From Chloroflexota bacterium (GTDB taxonomy: Bacteria; Chloroflexota; Dormibacteria; CF-121): a DNA stretch of 64,000 nt. Every line of letters begins with the position of its first letter. Within the stretch, counting starts at the first letter, position 1. Under the pieces are notes generated by a model. That model made no database searches. It was not told the origin of the DNA and was given only the letters and a program-made list of their open reading frames with translations. Where the stretch lies: contig VBID01000114.1 of assembly GCA_005880615.1 (NCBI GenBank), positions 93,324 through 157,323 of the forward strand. Reading direction: 5' to 3'. This document shows positions 12,250 to 46,062 of this stretch, one piece after another. The translations under genes and the position numbers were made by a program.

Positions 12250-12702
12250 ATGCGGTCGACCATGGCCGAGGCCCCATCGCCCGACGGGGAAACCCAGGAC
12301 CGGGTGCTGATTTTCCAGCCCGAGACGCGCCAGGCCCGCGCCTACCGGGAACTCTTTGAACACAACGGCTACCAGGCACGGACCGCGCTGCCGGCCGACG
12401 ATGTGCAGCGGATCTGCGAGGAGGTCCAGCCGGCGCTGGTGATCTTCGACATGGGATTCTGGGAAGCGGACAGCGCGCTTGTCTTTGGCATCCTCAACAA
12501 CGCGTTGGGCTTCCAAAGACCGGTCATCATCGGCCTGAGCACCCTCGACGTCCACACCCGGCGGGCCAGGCGTTTCGGCGCCGATGCGGTCTGGATCCGG
12601 GGCGTTGACGACGCGGTCGGGCTGCCCCGGCTCGCCGGCCAGCTGCTCGCCGCGCGCCGAGCGGGCACGCTCAAGGTGCCGCAGCCGAAGACCCCGCTCT
12701 AG
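12250..12702 (+). CDS. Atypical (degenerate) response-regulator receiver-domain-like protein
   Basis: A CheY-like alpha/beta pattern (VLIFQPE...ALVIFDMGF...VIIGLS...GADAVWIRG) that lacks the usual N-terminal acidic pair and the conserved Lys. Possible starts ATG 12250 or 12262. Confidence 0.5.
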   Translation: MRSTMAEAPSPDGETQDRVLIFQPETRQARAYRELFEHNGYQARTALPADDVQRICEEVQPALVIFDMGFWEADSALVFGILNNALGFQRPVIIGLSTLDVHTRRARRFGADAVWIRGVDDAVGLPRLAGQLLAARRAGTLKVPQPKTPL

Positions 12703-12806
12703 GCACACCCCGTTAGGCAATTCCCGAGCCCGAATCCACAGTTGAGGCCTCAACCGCTTTTCCCCACTCGCTGCGAGAAGCAATAAATATGTGGAAAAGA
12801 ATTGCC

Positions 12807-12837
12807 TTGACATTTCGTCGCACGTCGGTCGTATCAT
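12807..12837 (+). promoter_or_regulatory. Sigma70-like promoter (TTGACA-N19-TATCAT) with AT-rich upstream tract
   Basis: TTGACA at 12807-12812 and TATCAT at 12832-12837. An AT-rich block (caataaatatgtggaaaagaatt) precedes it. It lies about 70 nt upstream of the strong SD (AGGAGG 12890-12895) and TTG 12906. Confidence 0.4.
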
Positions 12838-12905
12838 AGACAGGCGTTTCGCGCCTACGGTCTCGGCAGGACCATAGCTCTCGAGGAAAGAGGAGGTCGC
12901 TCCGG

Positions 12906-13184: not shown

Positions 13185-13208
13185 TCTCTCTATAAGAGGC
13201 TAGGCTCT

Positions 13209-13404
13209 AAGCCCGGGTCCATCGATCGGACGACGCAGATCGGGATGCGGGGCGTGCCGAGCCGAAGGAGGCGACGAGCACGGGAGGGAGCGCATCCGTT
13301 GATGCGTGACCGACCGCGCACAGGAGACGACGCCCGGAGCCCGGCCTCGGGCTCAGGCCGCATCCGCGCCCAAGATGCTAGTTCGATTCGATGGACCCGG
13401 GCTT
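13209..13404 (-). mobile_element. MITE-like 196-bp element with 17-bp perfect TIRs (copy A, inverted relative to copy B)
   Basis: AAGCCCGGGTCCATCGA at 13209-13225 and its reverse complement at 13388-13404. The core is about 90% identical to 45480-45615 on the opposite strand. Confidence 0.5.
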
Positions 13405-13436
13405 ATAATCGGCGTCACCTCCGGAGGTGATGTCCG

Positions 13437-15176
13437 ATCGGCCAGGATCTCGAGACCCTTCGCCATTCCACCGCCCACGTAATGGCGGCCGCCGTGCTCG
13501 ACTTATTCCCCGGCACGGCCATCGGGATCGGGCCCGCGACCGACGAGGGATTCTATTACGACTTCGATTTCCGCAACGGCGGCCGCCCGGTGGAGGCCGA
13601 TCTGCGCCGGATCGAGGCGCGCATGCGCGAGATTGTTCGGGCGGCTCCCGCCTTCGTCAAGGAAGAAGTGCCGAAGCCGACGGCGGTGGAGCTCTTCCGC
13701 AAGCTCGACCAGCCGTACAAGGTCCAGCTGGTCGAGGAAAAGGTGACCGAACCGACGGCGCGGCTCTACCGGACCGGAGACTTCGTGGACCTCTGCCTGG
13801 GCCCGCACCTGCACGACGCCGGTCAGCTAGGGGCCTTTCGGCTACTCTCGCTGGCCGGCGCCTACTGGAAGGGCAGCGAGAAGAACCCGATGCTGACCCG
13901 GATTTACGGGACGGCCTTTCCCACCGAGGCCGAGCTGGAGGCACACCTCAAACGTCTGGAGGAGGCGGCCCAGCGGGACCATCGGAAGATCGGCAAGGAG
14001 CTCGACCTGTTCATGATCGACGACATGGCCGGCCGGGGCCTGCCGCTCTGGCTGCCCAAGGGGGCGACGGTGCGCCGGCTGTTGGAGGAGTACATCGTTA
14101 GGAAGGAATTGCGGGCAGGCTACCAGCACGTGCGCACCCCCGACATCGCCCGCCTCGACCTCTACAAGCAAAGCGGGCACTGGGCTCGCTACCGAGAGGC
14201 GATGTACCCACCCTCCAAGATCGAGGACGAGGAGTGGCAGCTGCGGCCCATGAACTGCCCCCACCACATCCGGATTTTCCAGCGCCGTGCCTACAGCTAT
14301 CGCGACCTGCCGGTGCGGCTGGCGGAGCTCGGCACCGTCTACCGCTACGAGAAGTCGGGCGAGGTGTCGGGGCTGATCCGGGTGCGCGCCTTCACCATCA
14401 ACGATGCCCACATCTTCTGCCGGCCGGACCAGGTGACCCAGGAGTTCGACGCCGTGGTCCGGCTGATTCTGGAGGTCTACGAAGCGCTGGGCGTCACCGA
14501 CTTCTACTTCCGCCTCTCGTTGCGTGACCAGACCAGTGACAAGTGGATGGGGGACCCGGCGGTGTGGGAGATGGCCCAGGAGGCGGCCCGCGCCGCACTC
14601 CGGGCGGGCGGGCACACGTTCGTGGAGGCCCCCGGGGAGGCCGCCTTCTACGGACCGAAGCTCGACGTTCAGATCAAGGACGCTATCGGCCGCGAGTTCA
14701 GCCTGTCCACCAACCAGATCGACTTCCTGATGCCCGAGGCCTTCGGCCTGGAGTACACCGATGCCGACCAGACCCAGAAGCGGCCGGTGATGATCCACCG
14801 CGCCCCCATCGGCTCCTTCGAACGCTTCATGGCCTACATGATCGAGCTCTATGCTGGGGCCTTTCCCCTCTGGCTGGCGCCGGTGCAGGTGGTCTTCATC
14901 CCTATCGCGGACCGCCACCTGGCCGGGGTGGAGGGTATCGCGGCGCGCTTTCGTGACCAGGACCTGCGGGTGGAGGTGGACGGCCGCGGCGAGCGGATGC
15001 AGGCCAAGATCCGGGACGCCCAGCTGCAGAAGGTGCCCTACATGGCGGTGGTGGGCGACCGCGAACTGGAAAGCGGCCAGGTCAACGTTCGGACCCGAGA
15101 CGGCGGCCAGGAAGCGCTGGCGGTCGAGGCGTTTCTTGACCGGCTGCGCCGCGAGAGCAAGGCGCCTAGCATATGA
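13437..15176 (+). CDS. thrS: Threonyl-tRNA synthetase lacking the N1 (TGS) domain
   Basis: The frame opens only at 13431, after TGA 13428-13430. The conserved editing motif HSTAH precedes the first ATG (13482). The only SD-adjacent start is ATC 13437 (GGAGG 13423-13427). Class II catalytic and anticodon-binding domains follow. Confidence 0.85.
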   Translation: MGQDLETLRHSTAHVMAAAVLDLFPGTAIGIGPATDEGFYYDFDFRNGGRPVEADLRRIEARMREIVRAAPAFVKEEVPKPTAVELFRKLDQPYKVQLVEEKVTEPTARLYRTGDFVDLCLGPHLHDAGQLGAFRLLSLAGAYWKGSEKNPMLTRIYGTAFPTEAELEAHLKRLEEAAQRDHRKIGKELDLFMIDDMAGRGLPLWLPKGATVRRLLEEYIVRKELRAGYQHVRTPDIARLDLYKQSGHWARYREAMYPPSKIEDEEWQLRPMNCPHHIRIFQRRAYSYRDLPVRLAELGTVYRYEKSGEVSGLIRVRAFTINDAHIFCRPDQVTQEFDAVVRLILEVYEALGVTDFYFRLSLRDQTSDKWMGDPAVWEMAQEAARAALRAGGHTFVEAPGEAAFYGPKLDVQIKDAIGREFSLSTNQIDFLMPEAFGLEYTDADQTQKRPVMIHRAPIGSFERFMAYMIELYAGAFPLWLAPVQVVFIPIADRHLAGVEGIAARFRDQDLRVEVDGRGERMQAKIRDAQLQKVPYMAVVGDRELESGQVNVRTRDGGQEALAVEAFLDRLRRESKAPSI

Positions 15177-21837: not shown

Positions 21838-21892
21838 TCACGCATAATGGCGCGATGAGGCCTGAGCCCGAGGGTCCGAGCGTCGCGGTCCA
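21838..21892 (+). repeat. Partial (5'-end) copy of the MITE-like element
   Basis: gcataatggcgcgatgaggcctgagcccgagggtccgagcgtcgcggtcc aligns to 45474-45530 of copy B. It ends 4 nt before GTG 21896. Confidence 0.4.
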
Positions 21893-40847: not shown

Positions 40848-41293
40848 GCATCGACCAGGAGGGCTACGGCTACCGCCCCGACGAGCGCGGTGTCGATCGC
40901 CTGATGGAAGACCTGCGAACGCTTTCGCCAGCGGGCATCGACCGCGCGGCCTGGGGGTGGGATTCGCACGAGGGCGGGCACTCGGTGGAACGCTTCCGCG
41001 ACGCCGAAAAAGCGGCCCTCCGCGTCATCGAGCAGTCGAATCGTGGCCCCGCCTGGGAACAGGTGCGGCGCTCCATCCTGGACCTGACCGAAGGGCGTTC
41101 CTCGCTGGTGTCCTGGAAGATCGAGCATGGGGACCCCGGCCACAAGGCGGAGCAGGCCGCCCTGGGCGCGGCCCTGGCGTTAGTGGGGGGAGAGAAATTG
41201 CCCCACAAGGAATTCGTCAGCCTGGTCCGCCCGATGGCGGAGGCGCTGCCCTGGCTCCTGCCGGAGGTCGCACCCGAACCGCGCCGGTCGTAA
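40844..41293 (+). CDS. Hypothetical protein in the infB-rbfA operon
   Basis: GTG overlaps the infB stop (GTGA). No recognisable domain. Translation begins MSIDQEGYGYRPDERGVDRLMEDLRTLSPAGIDRAAWGWDSHEGG. Confidence 0.5.
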   Translation: MSIDQEGYGYRPDERGVDRLMEDLRTLSPAGIDRAAWGWDSHEGGHSVERFRDAEKAALRVIEQSNRGPAWEQVRRSILDLTEGRSSLVSWKIEHGDPGHKAEQAALGAALALVGGEKLPHKEFVSLVRPMAEALPWLLPEVAPEPRRS

Positions 41294-41300
41294 GAGACAC

Positions 41301-41328
41301 CCTTCCCTCCCCCCTGAAGCGAGGGGAA
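41301..41328 (+). repeat. GC-rich hairpin (divergent member of the CCCTCCC...GGGAGGG family) in the rbfA leader
   Basis: CCTTCCCTCCCCCCTGAAGCGAGGGGAA folds as CCCCT-gaagcg-AGGGG. Confidence 0.35.
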
Positions 41329-41390
41329 ATGTTGGCGCGGCGATGTCCTGAGCTTAGGTGGGAGCGCAATGGGGGAGAATAGGTCCCGTG

Positions 41391-44575: not shown

Positions 44576-45450
44576 ACCCGGTCGCGGGCGATGGCCGGGC
44601 GCGCCGGTTCTGGGCCCGCGGCGCCGCCGCCTGTGCTGCCGCCGGGGTGAACGTGAACGTCGTCTGGACCACCCGGCGCGGCGCCGCCGCCGAGGCCGCG
44701 GCCACCGCCAACGGGCAAACCGTGATCGCGGTGGGCGGCGATGGCACCATCCACGAGGTGGTGAACGGATTGCTGCGTCGGCCGGGAACGGCGCGGCCCC
44801 GTTTCGGAGCCCTGCCCGCCGGAACGGGCGGCGACTTCTGCCGCAGCCTGCCCGGACCGCGCGACCCGGCCCTGATCCCGGGGTGGCTCCAGGCGTCCCG
44901 GTTCAAAACCATCGACGCGGCGCGCGCCGCCACCTCCAACGGCCGGCGATTCTTCATCAACGCGGCCGATGCCGGCATCGGGGCCCGCATCGCCCGCCGG
45001 GCGGTCGCTGCCCCGGCGCTGCTGGGCGGGACCGCTCGGTACCTTGGCGCCGCCGCCTGGAGCCTCATGGTGCACCGAAACGTGGCGGTGCGCCTCCGCC
45101 TCGACGACGGGCCGACCGAGCGCCTCCGAGTCTGGACCATCGTGGTGGCCAACGGCGGCTATGCCGGCAGTGGCATGTGGCTGGCGCCCGACGCCAGGCT
45201 GGATGACGGGTGGCTGGATGTGGTGATCATCGGCGACATCGGGCGGCCACTGGCTATCCGCAGCCTCCCGCTGCTGTACCAGGGAAAACATGGACGGCTG
45301 GCGCAGGTGCGCTTCGCCCGGGCCCGCCGGGTGGAGATTGAGGCCGAGACCCCCGCCCAGGTCCAGGCCGATGGCGAGCTGGTGGGGGAGACGCCCGCCG
45401 TCTTCGAGGTGATACCGGGAGCCCTGGACGTCCTCTCGTGGGACGGCTGA
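44569..45450 (+). CDS. DAGK_cat-family lipid kinase (YegS/diacylglycerol kinase-like)
   Basis: The conserved N-terminus LVIVNPVAGDGRARRF and the GGDGT motif are in one frame, which has no ATG/GTG/TTG for more than 200 nt upstream of GTG 44647. ATC 44569 is the candidate start, overlapping the ribF stop. Confidence 0.7.
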   Translation: MVNPVAGDGRARRFWARGAAACAAAGVNVNVVWTTRRGAAAEAAATANGQTVIAVGGDGTIHEVVNGLLRRPGTARPRFGALPAGTGGDFCRSLPGPRDPALIPGWLQASRFKTIDAARAATSNGRRFFINAADAGIGARIARRAVAAPALLGGTARYLGAAAWSLMVHRNVAVRLRLDDGPTERLRVWTIVVANGGYAGSGMWLAPDARLDDGWLDVVIIGDIGRPLAIRSLPLLYQGKHGRLAQVRFARARRVEIEAETPAQVQADGELVGETPAVFEVIPGALDVLSWDG

Positions 45451-45638
45451 GCCCGAACCCACAGAAACGAACTTGCATCTCGGATGCGGCCTGAGCCCGA
45501 GGCCGGGCTCCGAGCGTCGTCTCCTGTGCGCGCTCGGTCACGCATCGACGGATGCGCTCCCTCGCCTGCTCGTCGCCTCCTTCGGCTCGGCGCGCCCCGC
45601 ATCTCAATCTGCTTCGTCCGCTCGGTGGATCCGGGCTG
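45450..45638 (+). mobile_element. MITE-like element copy B (about 190 bp, imperfect TIRs)
   Basis: It begins at the DAGK stop codon. The core is about 90% identical to the reverse complement of 13227-13387. Termini AGCCCGAACCCACAG ... CGGTGGATCCGGGCTGG are inverted. Internal direct repeats CGTCGTCTCC and CGTCGCCTCC. Central palindrome CGCATCGACGGATGCG. Confidence 0.5.
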
Positions 45639-45705
45639 GCCAAACAGCTGTTCCCTGTTTTCGGCTGACGGCAAGGACTACCATCGGGTCGAAAAGGAGG
45701 TAACG

Positions 45706-46062
45706 GCCATGGGCAAGTACGCAGTCATGGGCGGCTACACGGCGGAGACCTGGGCCCGCTTCGTTCAGAATCCGGGGGACCGGGCCGCCGCGGTGCGGAA
45801 AGCCGCGGAGAGCGTGGGGGCGAAGCTCGACAGCATTTACTGGACGTTCGGCGACGACGACTATCTGGTGATCGTGGACGCGCCGGATGATGTCACCGCG
45901 GCGGCCGTTTCGGTCGCCGTCGGAAGCTCCGGCGCCCTTCGGAACCTGCGGACCATCAAGTTGATTACGGCCGACGAGCTGCAGAAGGTGCTGGCCAAAG
46001 CCAAGACCGCGGCCGGCGCGTACGTTCCACCTGGGGCCAGGGAGCCCGTCGCCACCCGCTGA
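45706..46062 (+). CDS. GYD-domain protein
   Basis: ATG after AAAAGGAGGT. MGKYAVMGGYTAETWARFVQNP...YWTFGDDDYLVIVDAPDD matches the GYD family. Confidence 0.7.
   Translation, partial: AMGKYAVMGGYTAETWARFVQNPGDRAAAVRKAAESVGAKLDSIYWTFGDDDYLVIVDAPDDVTAAAVSVAVGSSGALRNLRTIKLITADELQKVLAKAKTAAGAYVPPGAREPVATR

Follow-up and report, generated by a model that had tools for sequence, protein, structure and literature searches.

A probable family of miniature inverted-repeat transposable elements in Candidatus Limnocylindria with a predicted branched hairpin fold

In the current study, we analysed a stretch of 64,000 nucleotides of genomic DNA from a Chloroflexota bacterium (contig VBID01000114.1 of assembly GCA_005880615.1, forward-strand positions 93,324 to 157,323; hereafter the window), which contains two copies, A and B, of an intergenic element bounded by terminal inverted repeats (TIRs) that probably represents a family of MITEs (miniature inverted-repeat transposable elements) of Candidatus Limnocylindria. 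The neighbours of copy A encode an amino-acid permease, two small proteins, the threonyl-tRNA synthetase ThrRS, a DinB_2 protein and a peptidase of family S51, and copy B separates a DAGK-family gene from a GYD gene, its sense strand being co-oriented with both (Table 1). A sequence-only reading of this DNA had reported copy B as a second full copy of the element at A in opposite orientation, and pairwise alignment confirmed this, with 87.1% identity across 194 nt in inverted relative orientation (E 3e-65) and a gap-free core of 157 nt that is 92% complementary; the similarity between A and B therefore does not vanish on proper alignment. The terminal repeats had also been quoted correctly: including the TA, that of copy A is a perfect 18-nt repeat, TAAGCCCGGGTCCATCGA, in which 18/18 positions pair, while the ends of copy B are degenerate and pair at 12/17 positions. 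Copy B does begin at the TGA stop of the DAGK-family gene, of which it takes the A as its first base, but its end lies 71 nt from the GYD ATG (45709), not the 65 nt first given.

Table 1. Features of the element in the window (window positions; HMM, hidden Markov model of the family; SD, Shine-Dalgarno sequence).
Feature	Position	Strand	Remarks
Copy A	13210..13403	-	194-nt MITE of the subfamily with a 15-nt internal TIR-TIR remnant; HMM 182 bits, E 2e-55
TIR of copy A	13210..13225	+	AGCCCGGGTCCATCGA; pairs perfectly with 13388-13403
Other TIR of copy A	13388..13403	+	TCGATGGACCCGGGCT
Left TA duplication of copy A	13208..13209	.	L134 empty site GACCTC TA TAATCGG equals the window flanks minus one TA
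Right TA duplication of copy A	13404..13405	.	With 13406-13409 rebuilds TATAAT, ~70 nt upstream of thrS
Copy B	45450..45637	+	188-nt MITE of the same subfamily as A; HMM 162 bits, E 3e-49
Left TIR of copy B	45450..45464	+	AGCCCGAACCCACAG
Right TIR of copy B	45623..45637	+	CGGTGGATCCGGGCT; same as the family consensus
DAGK-family TGA stop	45448..45450	+	T-N-A target and left duplication of B; right duplicate decayed to TG (45637-45638)
Internal hairpin of B	45492..45509	+	TGAGCCCGAGGCCGGGCT; equivalent in copy A at 13338-13355; absent from the 179-nt majority
Central stem-loop of B	45541..45556	+	CGCATC-GACG-GATGCG; strongest-covarying helix (alignment columns 115-131)
GCC-UCCUUC-GGC hairpin of B	45575..45586	+	Sense-strand loop is anti-SD-like; the opposite strand has AAGGAGG
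Fragment C	21849..21885	+	26-37-nt match around the internal remnant of A/B

A MITE is a non-autonomous transposon with TIRs and no gene of its own. A scan of a genome collection using a 21-mer from the element returned two more full copies (L007 and L008), both in one Candidatus Limnocylindria metagenome-assembled genome, together with two unrelated genomes that share just a 23-30-nt hairpin motif, and a metagenome scan using a second 24-mer returned 98 stretches. BLAST over the DNA collected in this way produced 153 matches of 100 nt or more; the full copies with distinct flanks number 72 and represent at least 37 distinct insertion sites once nested copies and orthologous duplicates had been dropped. 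The invariance of GCTCGTCGCCTCCTTCGGCTCGGC and of GCC-UCCUUC-GGC across the metagenome copies is an ascertainment bias of the metagenome search pattern and was not used as evidence.

The majority form measures 179 nt, with the ends (A)GCCCGAATCCACCG...CGGTGGATCCGGGC(T) and a family consensus TIR of 15-16 nt. An extra TGAGCCCGAGGCCGG sets copies A, B, L007 and L008 apart as a 194-nt subfamily; at the same position, L027, L036, L043 and others hold a full nested copy that belongs to a variant subfamily (TIR AGCCCGAGGCCGCCGG...), which makes them composites of 357 nt. Other forms, of 229 and 279 nt, carry two or three modules of ~50 nt at the 5' end. The extra internal hairpin of A and B is most plausibly what remains of such a nested variant-subfamily insertion after its collapse. 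The variant units of 194, 229, 279 and 357 nt arise through nested insertion and subsequent recombination. All are without coding capacity for a transposase, since the units span 179-194 nt and the variants at most 357 nt. In a recurrent composite seen at many loci (L023, L026, L028, L030, L034, L038, L052, L054, L056, L060, L061, L078, L083, L100 and L116), a full copy sits inside the anti-SD-like GCCTCC^TTCGGC loop of an older, ~75%-identical copy; either this composite was itself amplified or the loop is a preferred target.

The element does contain a 57-aa open frame, which in copy B continues in frame into GYD; an open reading frame (ORF) at 45484-46062 opens inside copy B in this manner and spans 192 aa, as against the 117 aa of the real GYD protein. 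MITE copies in a genome this rich in GC can thus give rise to spurious N-terminal extensions when annotation relies on ORFs. A coding role for the 57-aa frame was dismissed, as it is without SD, GYD has its own AAGGAGG and ATG, and the substitutions are structural (paired) rather than codon-like.

The comparison of orthologous intergenic regions, which had been proposed at the outset, revealed both presence and absence at each of the two sites. The site of copy B is empty in four related contigs (L002, L004, L005 and L006), where the GYD protein is identical and the spacer is 69 nt versus 258 nt; the empty alleles read C-TAA-GCCAAAC (L004) and C-TGA-CCCAAAC (L002), and the filled allele holds 188 extra nt between TGA and GCC, a net gain of the element plus 2 bp. 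The site of copy A is empty in a distant lineage (L134, ThrRS 89% identical), in which GACCTC-TA-TAATCGGCGTCACC corresponds to the window flanks minus one TA, so that the duplication around AGCCCG...CGGGCT is exactly TA. Copy A lies in the leading TA of a TATAAT hexamer that is found ~70 nt upstream of thrS and is rebuilt by the duplication. Two further pairs gained 3 nt in addition to the element: between L120 (empty) and L117 (filled), GGTG-TTA-GCCCGCC becomes TTA[GCCCG..CGGGC]TTG with a gain of 180 nt (177 + 3), and L078 exceeds L042 by 189 nt (186 + 3). Across the 37 sites, the flanks show the pattern C (-4, 29/37), T (-3, 22/37), N, A / GCCCG...CGGGC / T, N, A/G, with TA/GCCCG..CGGGC/TA at five sites and a perfect 3-bp TNA direct repeat at 6/37 sites against ~2.5 expected. 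Taken together, these comparisons indicate that 2-3 bp are duplicated upon insertion, the target being T(N)A within a CTNAG/CTAG-like context. The empty sites and the dozens of dispersed copies bear out the earlier proposal that a single transposable, TIR-bearing element had inserted at these loci.

The degenerate repeats of copy B had been taken as a sign that it is older than copy A, and here the lineage comparisons reverse the order. Copy A is the older insertion and copy B the younger, because the A site is filled in the L002 lineage, which lacks B, and is empty only in L134. The L002 lineage (ThrRS 98% identical) holds, at the same position as copy A, an internally deleted derivative of 113 nt, and copy B, a lineage-specific insertion, is absent from both the L002 and the L004 lineages. 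The perfect ends of copy A differ from the family consensus by paired changes, and its perfect TIR reflects these changes rather than youth.

Based on these findings, we consider it likely that A and B belong to a previously undescribed MITE family of Candidatus Limnocylindria that is moved in trans by a DDE transposase. The element is small, has TIRs, shows target duplication in filled/empty pairs and is present as dispersed, polymorphic copies (37 sites, four of them polymorphic). The transposase would be of the IS630/Tc1 type (TA) or of the IS5/IS1031-IS427 type (TNA). Both IS630-derived MITEs, such as RUP of Streptococcus pneumoniae, and those derived from IS5/IS1031-IS427 or resembling Tourist (PIF/Harbinger) have TIRs of 15-18 nt and a CTAG/CTNAG-like target; the former duplicate TA and the latter TNA. 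Copy A, with its exact TA, matches the strict IS630/Tc1-mariner pattern and does not fit the 3-bp TNA of IS5-type or Tourist-like elements, whereas two of the other empty sites (+3 nt) fit 3 bp better.

Several observations weigh against this explanation. The duplication is not uniform: copy A has TA, two other sites gained 3 nt and copy B gained 2 nt. No autonomous element with the family termini was found in the 0.93 Mb of collected loci or in IMG/VR: TIR-like 15-mers (at most 3 mismatches) that are paired 0.3-4 kb apart enclose host genes, for example allophanate-hydrolase-like and glycosyl-hydrolase-like ORFs, and not transposases; inverted repeats (20 of 24 positions) sought de novo at spacings of 0.7-2.6 kb included no element with the family termini; and scans of IMG/VR with a body 24-mer and a TIR 21-mer produced zero matches. 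The gene contexts employed throughout derive from a crude GC3-based ORF caller, checked on three officially annotated loci, where it reproduced most official calls and nearly all orientations. Finally, the covariation of internal stems and the orientation bias described below are unexpected for a purely parasitic cut-and-paste MITE.

The insertions in the window had been described as hugging start and stop codons. For stop codons this is true family-wide: an element end lies at most 3 nt from a stop codon at ~15 of ~45 flank-distinct sites with called neighbours, the association being observed overall at ~27-40% of sites against ~10-13% expected from the supply of TA sites, and at two sites between convergent genes both stops overlap the element ends. 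The start-codon part did not stand, since downstream starts mostly lie 14-203 nt away and none is reliably abutted, and two overlaps of -13 (L056 and L091) rest on the start calls of the crude ORF caller. Mere supply of TA sites was rejected as the full cause of the habit, its ~10-13% being insufficient, and a CTAG-like target fits better. In the window, 13/35 CTAG sites overlap stop codons, and among non-disruptive sites stops hold ~10% of TA and ~13% of TNA but about half of CTAG (13 versus 12 intergenic). The pattern probably arises because T(N)A/CTAG targets are rare at the 67% GC of the window and stop codons supply much of them. TAA and TGA are themselves T-N-A and TAG would be rebuilt from TA plus the G of the element; the duplication, or the first base of the element, would rebuild the stop codon, as at the DAGK-family gene. 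These counts go part of the way to showing that target preference and purifying selection explain the stop-codon habit, and they offer a simple mechanistic reason for the presence of small repeats on stop codons in GC-rich genomes.

Folding of copy A is markedly more stable than that of shuffled sequences (z = -5.6 and -9.2 for its two strands), that of copy B less so (z = -1.3). RNAalifold, applied to 54 flank-distinct copies, predicted a long stem closed by the TIRs and carrying internal branches, with a consensus of 46 pairs in which 97.5% of 2481 cells are paired. Changes on both sides were found for 16/46 pairs, compared to 7.7±1.0 in shuffles (0/500 reach 16) and 3-8 in slid controls. 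In the central stem-loop, UA<->CG exchanges are seen in 19 copies, CG<->UA in 8, GC<->AU in 14 and GC<->CG in 10, and these covarying pairs are broken in only 1-3 copies each. The covariation extends beyond co-evolution of the TIRs to internal helices (columns 110-136), and compensatory changes preserve the long branched hairpin into which the whole element is predicted to fold. The strands differ from each other: the one opposite 5'-AGCCCGAATCC...GCCTCCTTCGGC...-3' folds better in 64/64 copies (mean -109 vs -94 kcal/mol) and has a 55-pair consensus with 251 G.U vs 33 A.C cells, these cells stemming from a handful of columns and hence from few independent events.

The orientation of the element relative to genes is likewise biased. 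In co-directional contexts, the AGCCCGAATCC...CCTCCTTC strand is the mRNA strand in 12 cases and the opposite strand in 1 (p=0.0034), and when sites with one called neighbour are included the figures are 22 vs 5 (p=0.0015). A palindromic target does not predict such a bias, which may reflect post-insertion selection, such as selection against the more perfectly paired double-stranded RNA or against AAGGAGG in transcripts; a replication-linked cause would be the alternative. The element may be co-transcribed with its neighbours, and its structure or its orientation may be under selection at the level of RNA or of single-stranded DNA, in the manner of Correia, ERIC and bcr1 repeats. That the family is at heart a mobile, structure-selected RNA or single-stranded DNA module, whose orientation matters to the host and whose perfect-TIR copies could flip in place without a recombinase, strikes us as unlikely. 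Were it correct, a hairpin with an anti-SD-like loop would tune the stability or translation of neighbouring genes, or the better-folding opposite strand would be harmful in mRNA, and a flip of copy A upstream of thrS would amount to switching between two states.

A host-selected structured RNA module that spreads like a MITE, acting as an intercistronic or 3'-untranslated-region stabiliser, a site for RNase III or else an anti-SD decoy, is quite improbable. In that case the conservation of the element would be due to its function and not to parasitism. It would account for covariation in internal helices rather than in the ends that a transposase binds, for the 12:1 orientation bias with respect to transcription and for the presence of the conserved loop UCCUUC / GAAGGA, and it has precedents in bcr1, Correia and ERIC (PMC3184786, PMC10969869). 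The strand that forms the better RNA hairpin is, however, usually the non-mRNA strand, and the covariation may instead reflect the needs of master copies for mobilisation. Presence or absence among near-identical lineages, deletions, duplications and the inversion at one site argue against a locus-specific requirement. Searches for regulatory signals were also unproductive: a scan for sigma-70 promoters around A and B revealed no promoter-like site; an intrinsic-terminator scan around both copies gave nothing beyond chance expectation, only one weak minus-strand match inside B, where ~0.2 would be expected by chance; and Rfam yielded only a tRNA in the window at the gathering threshold and, for the region of copy A searched at E<=10, a best match of E>1.

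Among known systems, the Correia repeats (CREE/NEMIS) of Neisseria, like the Limnocylindria MITE, are non-coding intergenic elements of 100-200 bp with TIRs, a TA-type duplication, many copies and no known parent transposase. The two share no sequence similarity and belong to different phyla, and the Limnocylindria MITE is distinguished by its branched fold, variable 50-nt 5' modules, stop-codon association and orientation bias. The likeness would extend to co-transcription into a long hairpin, which in Correia is cleaved by RNase III (PMC10969869). The ERIC/IRU repeats of enterobacteria and yersiniae are likewise imperfect palindromes, of ~130-180 nt, transcribed from intergenic positions that are frequently just 3' of genes, and their effects depend on the placement of the RNA hairpin in the transcript (PMC10969869); they show little sign of recent mobility, whereas the Limnocylindria MITE has filled/empty sites, nested copies and subfamilies. 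The bcr1 repeats of the Bacillus cereus group, which are mobile and span ~155-180 nt, similarly have short direct repeats and compensatory changes that keep a cruciform-like RNA (PMC3184786), but their direct repeats measure 5 bp compared to 2-3 bp at T(N)A here, their sequence and host are unrelated, and transcription of the Limnocylindria MITE is putative.

The strand asymmetry would also suit a REPIN-like element, i.e. a long hairpin repeat moved as single-stranded DNA by a Y1 transposase of the RAYT/IS200-IS605 type, a reading that we judge decidedly doubtful. REPINs are likewise abundant extragenic hairpin repeats with paired changes in both arms, and the compensatory changes, the better fold of one strand in every copy with its excess of G.U over A.C cells, the strand and orientation bias and the lack of a DDE parent in the collected loci are all compatible with it. 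Y1 transposition generates no target duplication, yet the four filled/empty pairs gain 2-3 bp of target; REPINs consist of two short repetitive extragenic palindromes (REPs), while the Limnocylindria MITE has true TIRs abutting T(N)A and a 179-nt branched body with several helices, unlike REP doublets. Furthermore, the strand expected on the lagging-strand template of co-oriented genes is the one with the weaker hairpin.

The orientation of copy A itself differs between assemblies. All eight other assemblies that span its site (L011-L014, L018, L036, L130 and L131) carry the element reversed with respect to the window, with flanks and 18-nt terminal repeats identical; L016 and L017 are consistent with them for the left side. 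The 162-nt interior in L012 and L013 is the exact reverse complement of that in the window (100% identity), the two junction versions being CCATCGA/TCGGACGACG and CCATCGA/ATCGAACTAG. Elsewhere the window differs from those contigs by 0.02-0.07%, so that it is an independent assembly of a near-identical strain. A real inversion is more likely than an assembly artefact, since the 18-nt repeat is shorter than the usual assembler k-mers. As the inversion is specific to the window, so is the opposite orientation of A and B: the claim is correct for the window, while in the eight other assemblies both copies point in the same direction.

Copy A might also be regarded as an inverton upstream of thrS, in which the perfect 18-nt repeats act as recombination sites and the two states are distributed across assemblies. 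The exactly reversed interior between unchanged flanks in L012/L013, the independence of the window assembly (its strain being 99.93-99.98% identical) and the shortness of the repeats relative to assembler k-mers, which makes an artefact less than obvious, are in keeping with this idea. We nonetheless hold it to be very improbable: the flipped state occurs in the window only, against eight assemblies the other way, and no other site among the 37 shows both orientations. A dedicated switch is unlikely because neither a recombinase or invertase gene among the neighbours of copy A nor a promoter inside the element accompanies the inversion, and a one-off inversion, with no switch at all, would be the outcome if the perfect repeats underwent template switching or short-homology recombination. 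Near-identical strains also carry versions of 194, 229, 279 and 113 nt at the orthologous site of copy A (L011 3305-3533; L019 591-871; L132 1311-1423). In two short contigs (L016 and L019), the left half of A continues into other copies (those of the L034 and L064 sites), represented by their right half and flank, which indicates inter-copy recombination or repeat-induced chimeric assembly.

Chance or GC-rich low complexity as the source of the similarity can be set aside as next to impossible, since A and B align at E 3e-65, both are significant by HMM and dozens of full copies occur elsewhere; the point applies only to fragment C, a match of 26-37 nt that itself exceeds 200/200 shuffles, the overlapping A/B 21-mer being found alone in unrelated genomes.

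Fragment C had been presented as a third partial copy, 55 bp in length. A match beyond GC composition is indeed present, but it covers 26-37 nt (21849-21885), with 92% identity over 26 nt to A and 81% over 37 nt to B. As to whether low-complexity GC composition explains it, its score of 36.5 bits was reached in 0/200 dinucleotide shuffles of the window (35.6 bits in 2/200), a significance of about 1%, though the family HMM, built from 54 copies, does not recover it at E<=10. Most of the match is due to the short motif GGCCTGAGCCCGAGG; the A/B version of this motif, an overlapping internal 21-mer (CCTGAGCCCGAGGCCGGGCTC), also occurs alone in the unrelated genomes L009 and L010. The similarity thus exceeds GC composition but is weak. 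Fragment C probably stems from the variant subfamily (TGA GCCCGAGG...) as a relic or footprint, of at most 12-45 nt. In L129, where the CvpA protein is identical, only the 12 nt TGAGCCCGAGGG are missing, the common flank being GCGCGATGAG.CC...CGAGC...TCCAGCC-start. The adjacent VOC gene had been said to lack an SD owing to the fragment. This was not borne out: the missing SD is ancestral and not caused by fragment C, because L129, without TGAGCCCGAGGG, still has the SD-less TCCAGCC before the start codon.

A possible further relic lies at 12726-12741, directly past the gene ending at 12702, where GAGCCCGAATCCACAG agrees with the left TIR of the family at 15/16 positions, with the hairpin GTTGAGGCCTCAAC next to it downstream. 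This segment may represent a solo-TIR relic, although its family HMM match, taken alone, is not significant (E 7.9).

In the literature searched, the MITE family is undescribed for Limnocylindria, an abundant, uncultured class of soil and freshwater Chloroflexota, and as far as that literature shows it is the first repeat family to be characterised there; as a kind of element it is ordinary. For annotation purposes, the family accounts for spurious long ORFs, 45484-46062 among them, as well as for breaks in contigs and for chimeric joins (L016 and L019); the filled/empty sites, the modular variants and the one in-place inversion provide strain-level markers for these populations. Worth following up are the covariation and the asymmetry between strands, together with the orientation bias and the inversion seen once. 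If the covariation and orientation bias do reflect selection at the RNA level, the family would represent a Chloroflexota example of transcript-shaping repeats of the Correia/ERIC/bcr1 kind.

A second, unrelated palindromic family, REP-like and of the form CCCCTCCC-N4-GGGAGGGG, was noted at ~41290-41330 of the window. Between rbfA and a 149-aa gene, the window lineage has a single copy and the L002 lineage a tandem of three (L002 5640-5810), with further copies in L024, L028, L030, L064 and L073.

Around thrS, the TATAAT hexamer at 13406-13411 is conserved in the empty L134 allele. It is followed at 13414-13432 by the perfect palindrome TCACCTCCGGAGGTGA, with anti-SD-like and SD-like halves, which is conserved in L132 and partly in L134; hexamer and palindrome may constitute a putative thrS promoter and leader. 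A T-box or other thrS leader in the region of copy A was considered and rejected, there being no Rfam match and the site being empty in L134. Upstream of the 92-aa gene, a promoter-like TTGACA...TATCAT with a 19-nt spacer (12805-12845) is conserved in L134 as GGGCTTGACATCGCGCGTTCCATCGGTCGTATCATAGACAGG. The ThrRS encoded at 13482-15176 is a short form of 564 aa, comprising the tRNA_SAD, core and anticodon-binding domains and no TGS domain; its distant Limnocylindria homologues measure 576-581 aa.

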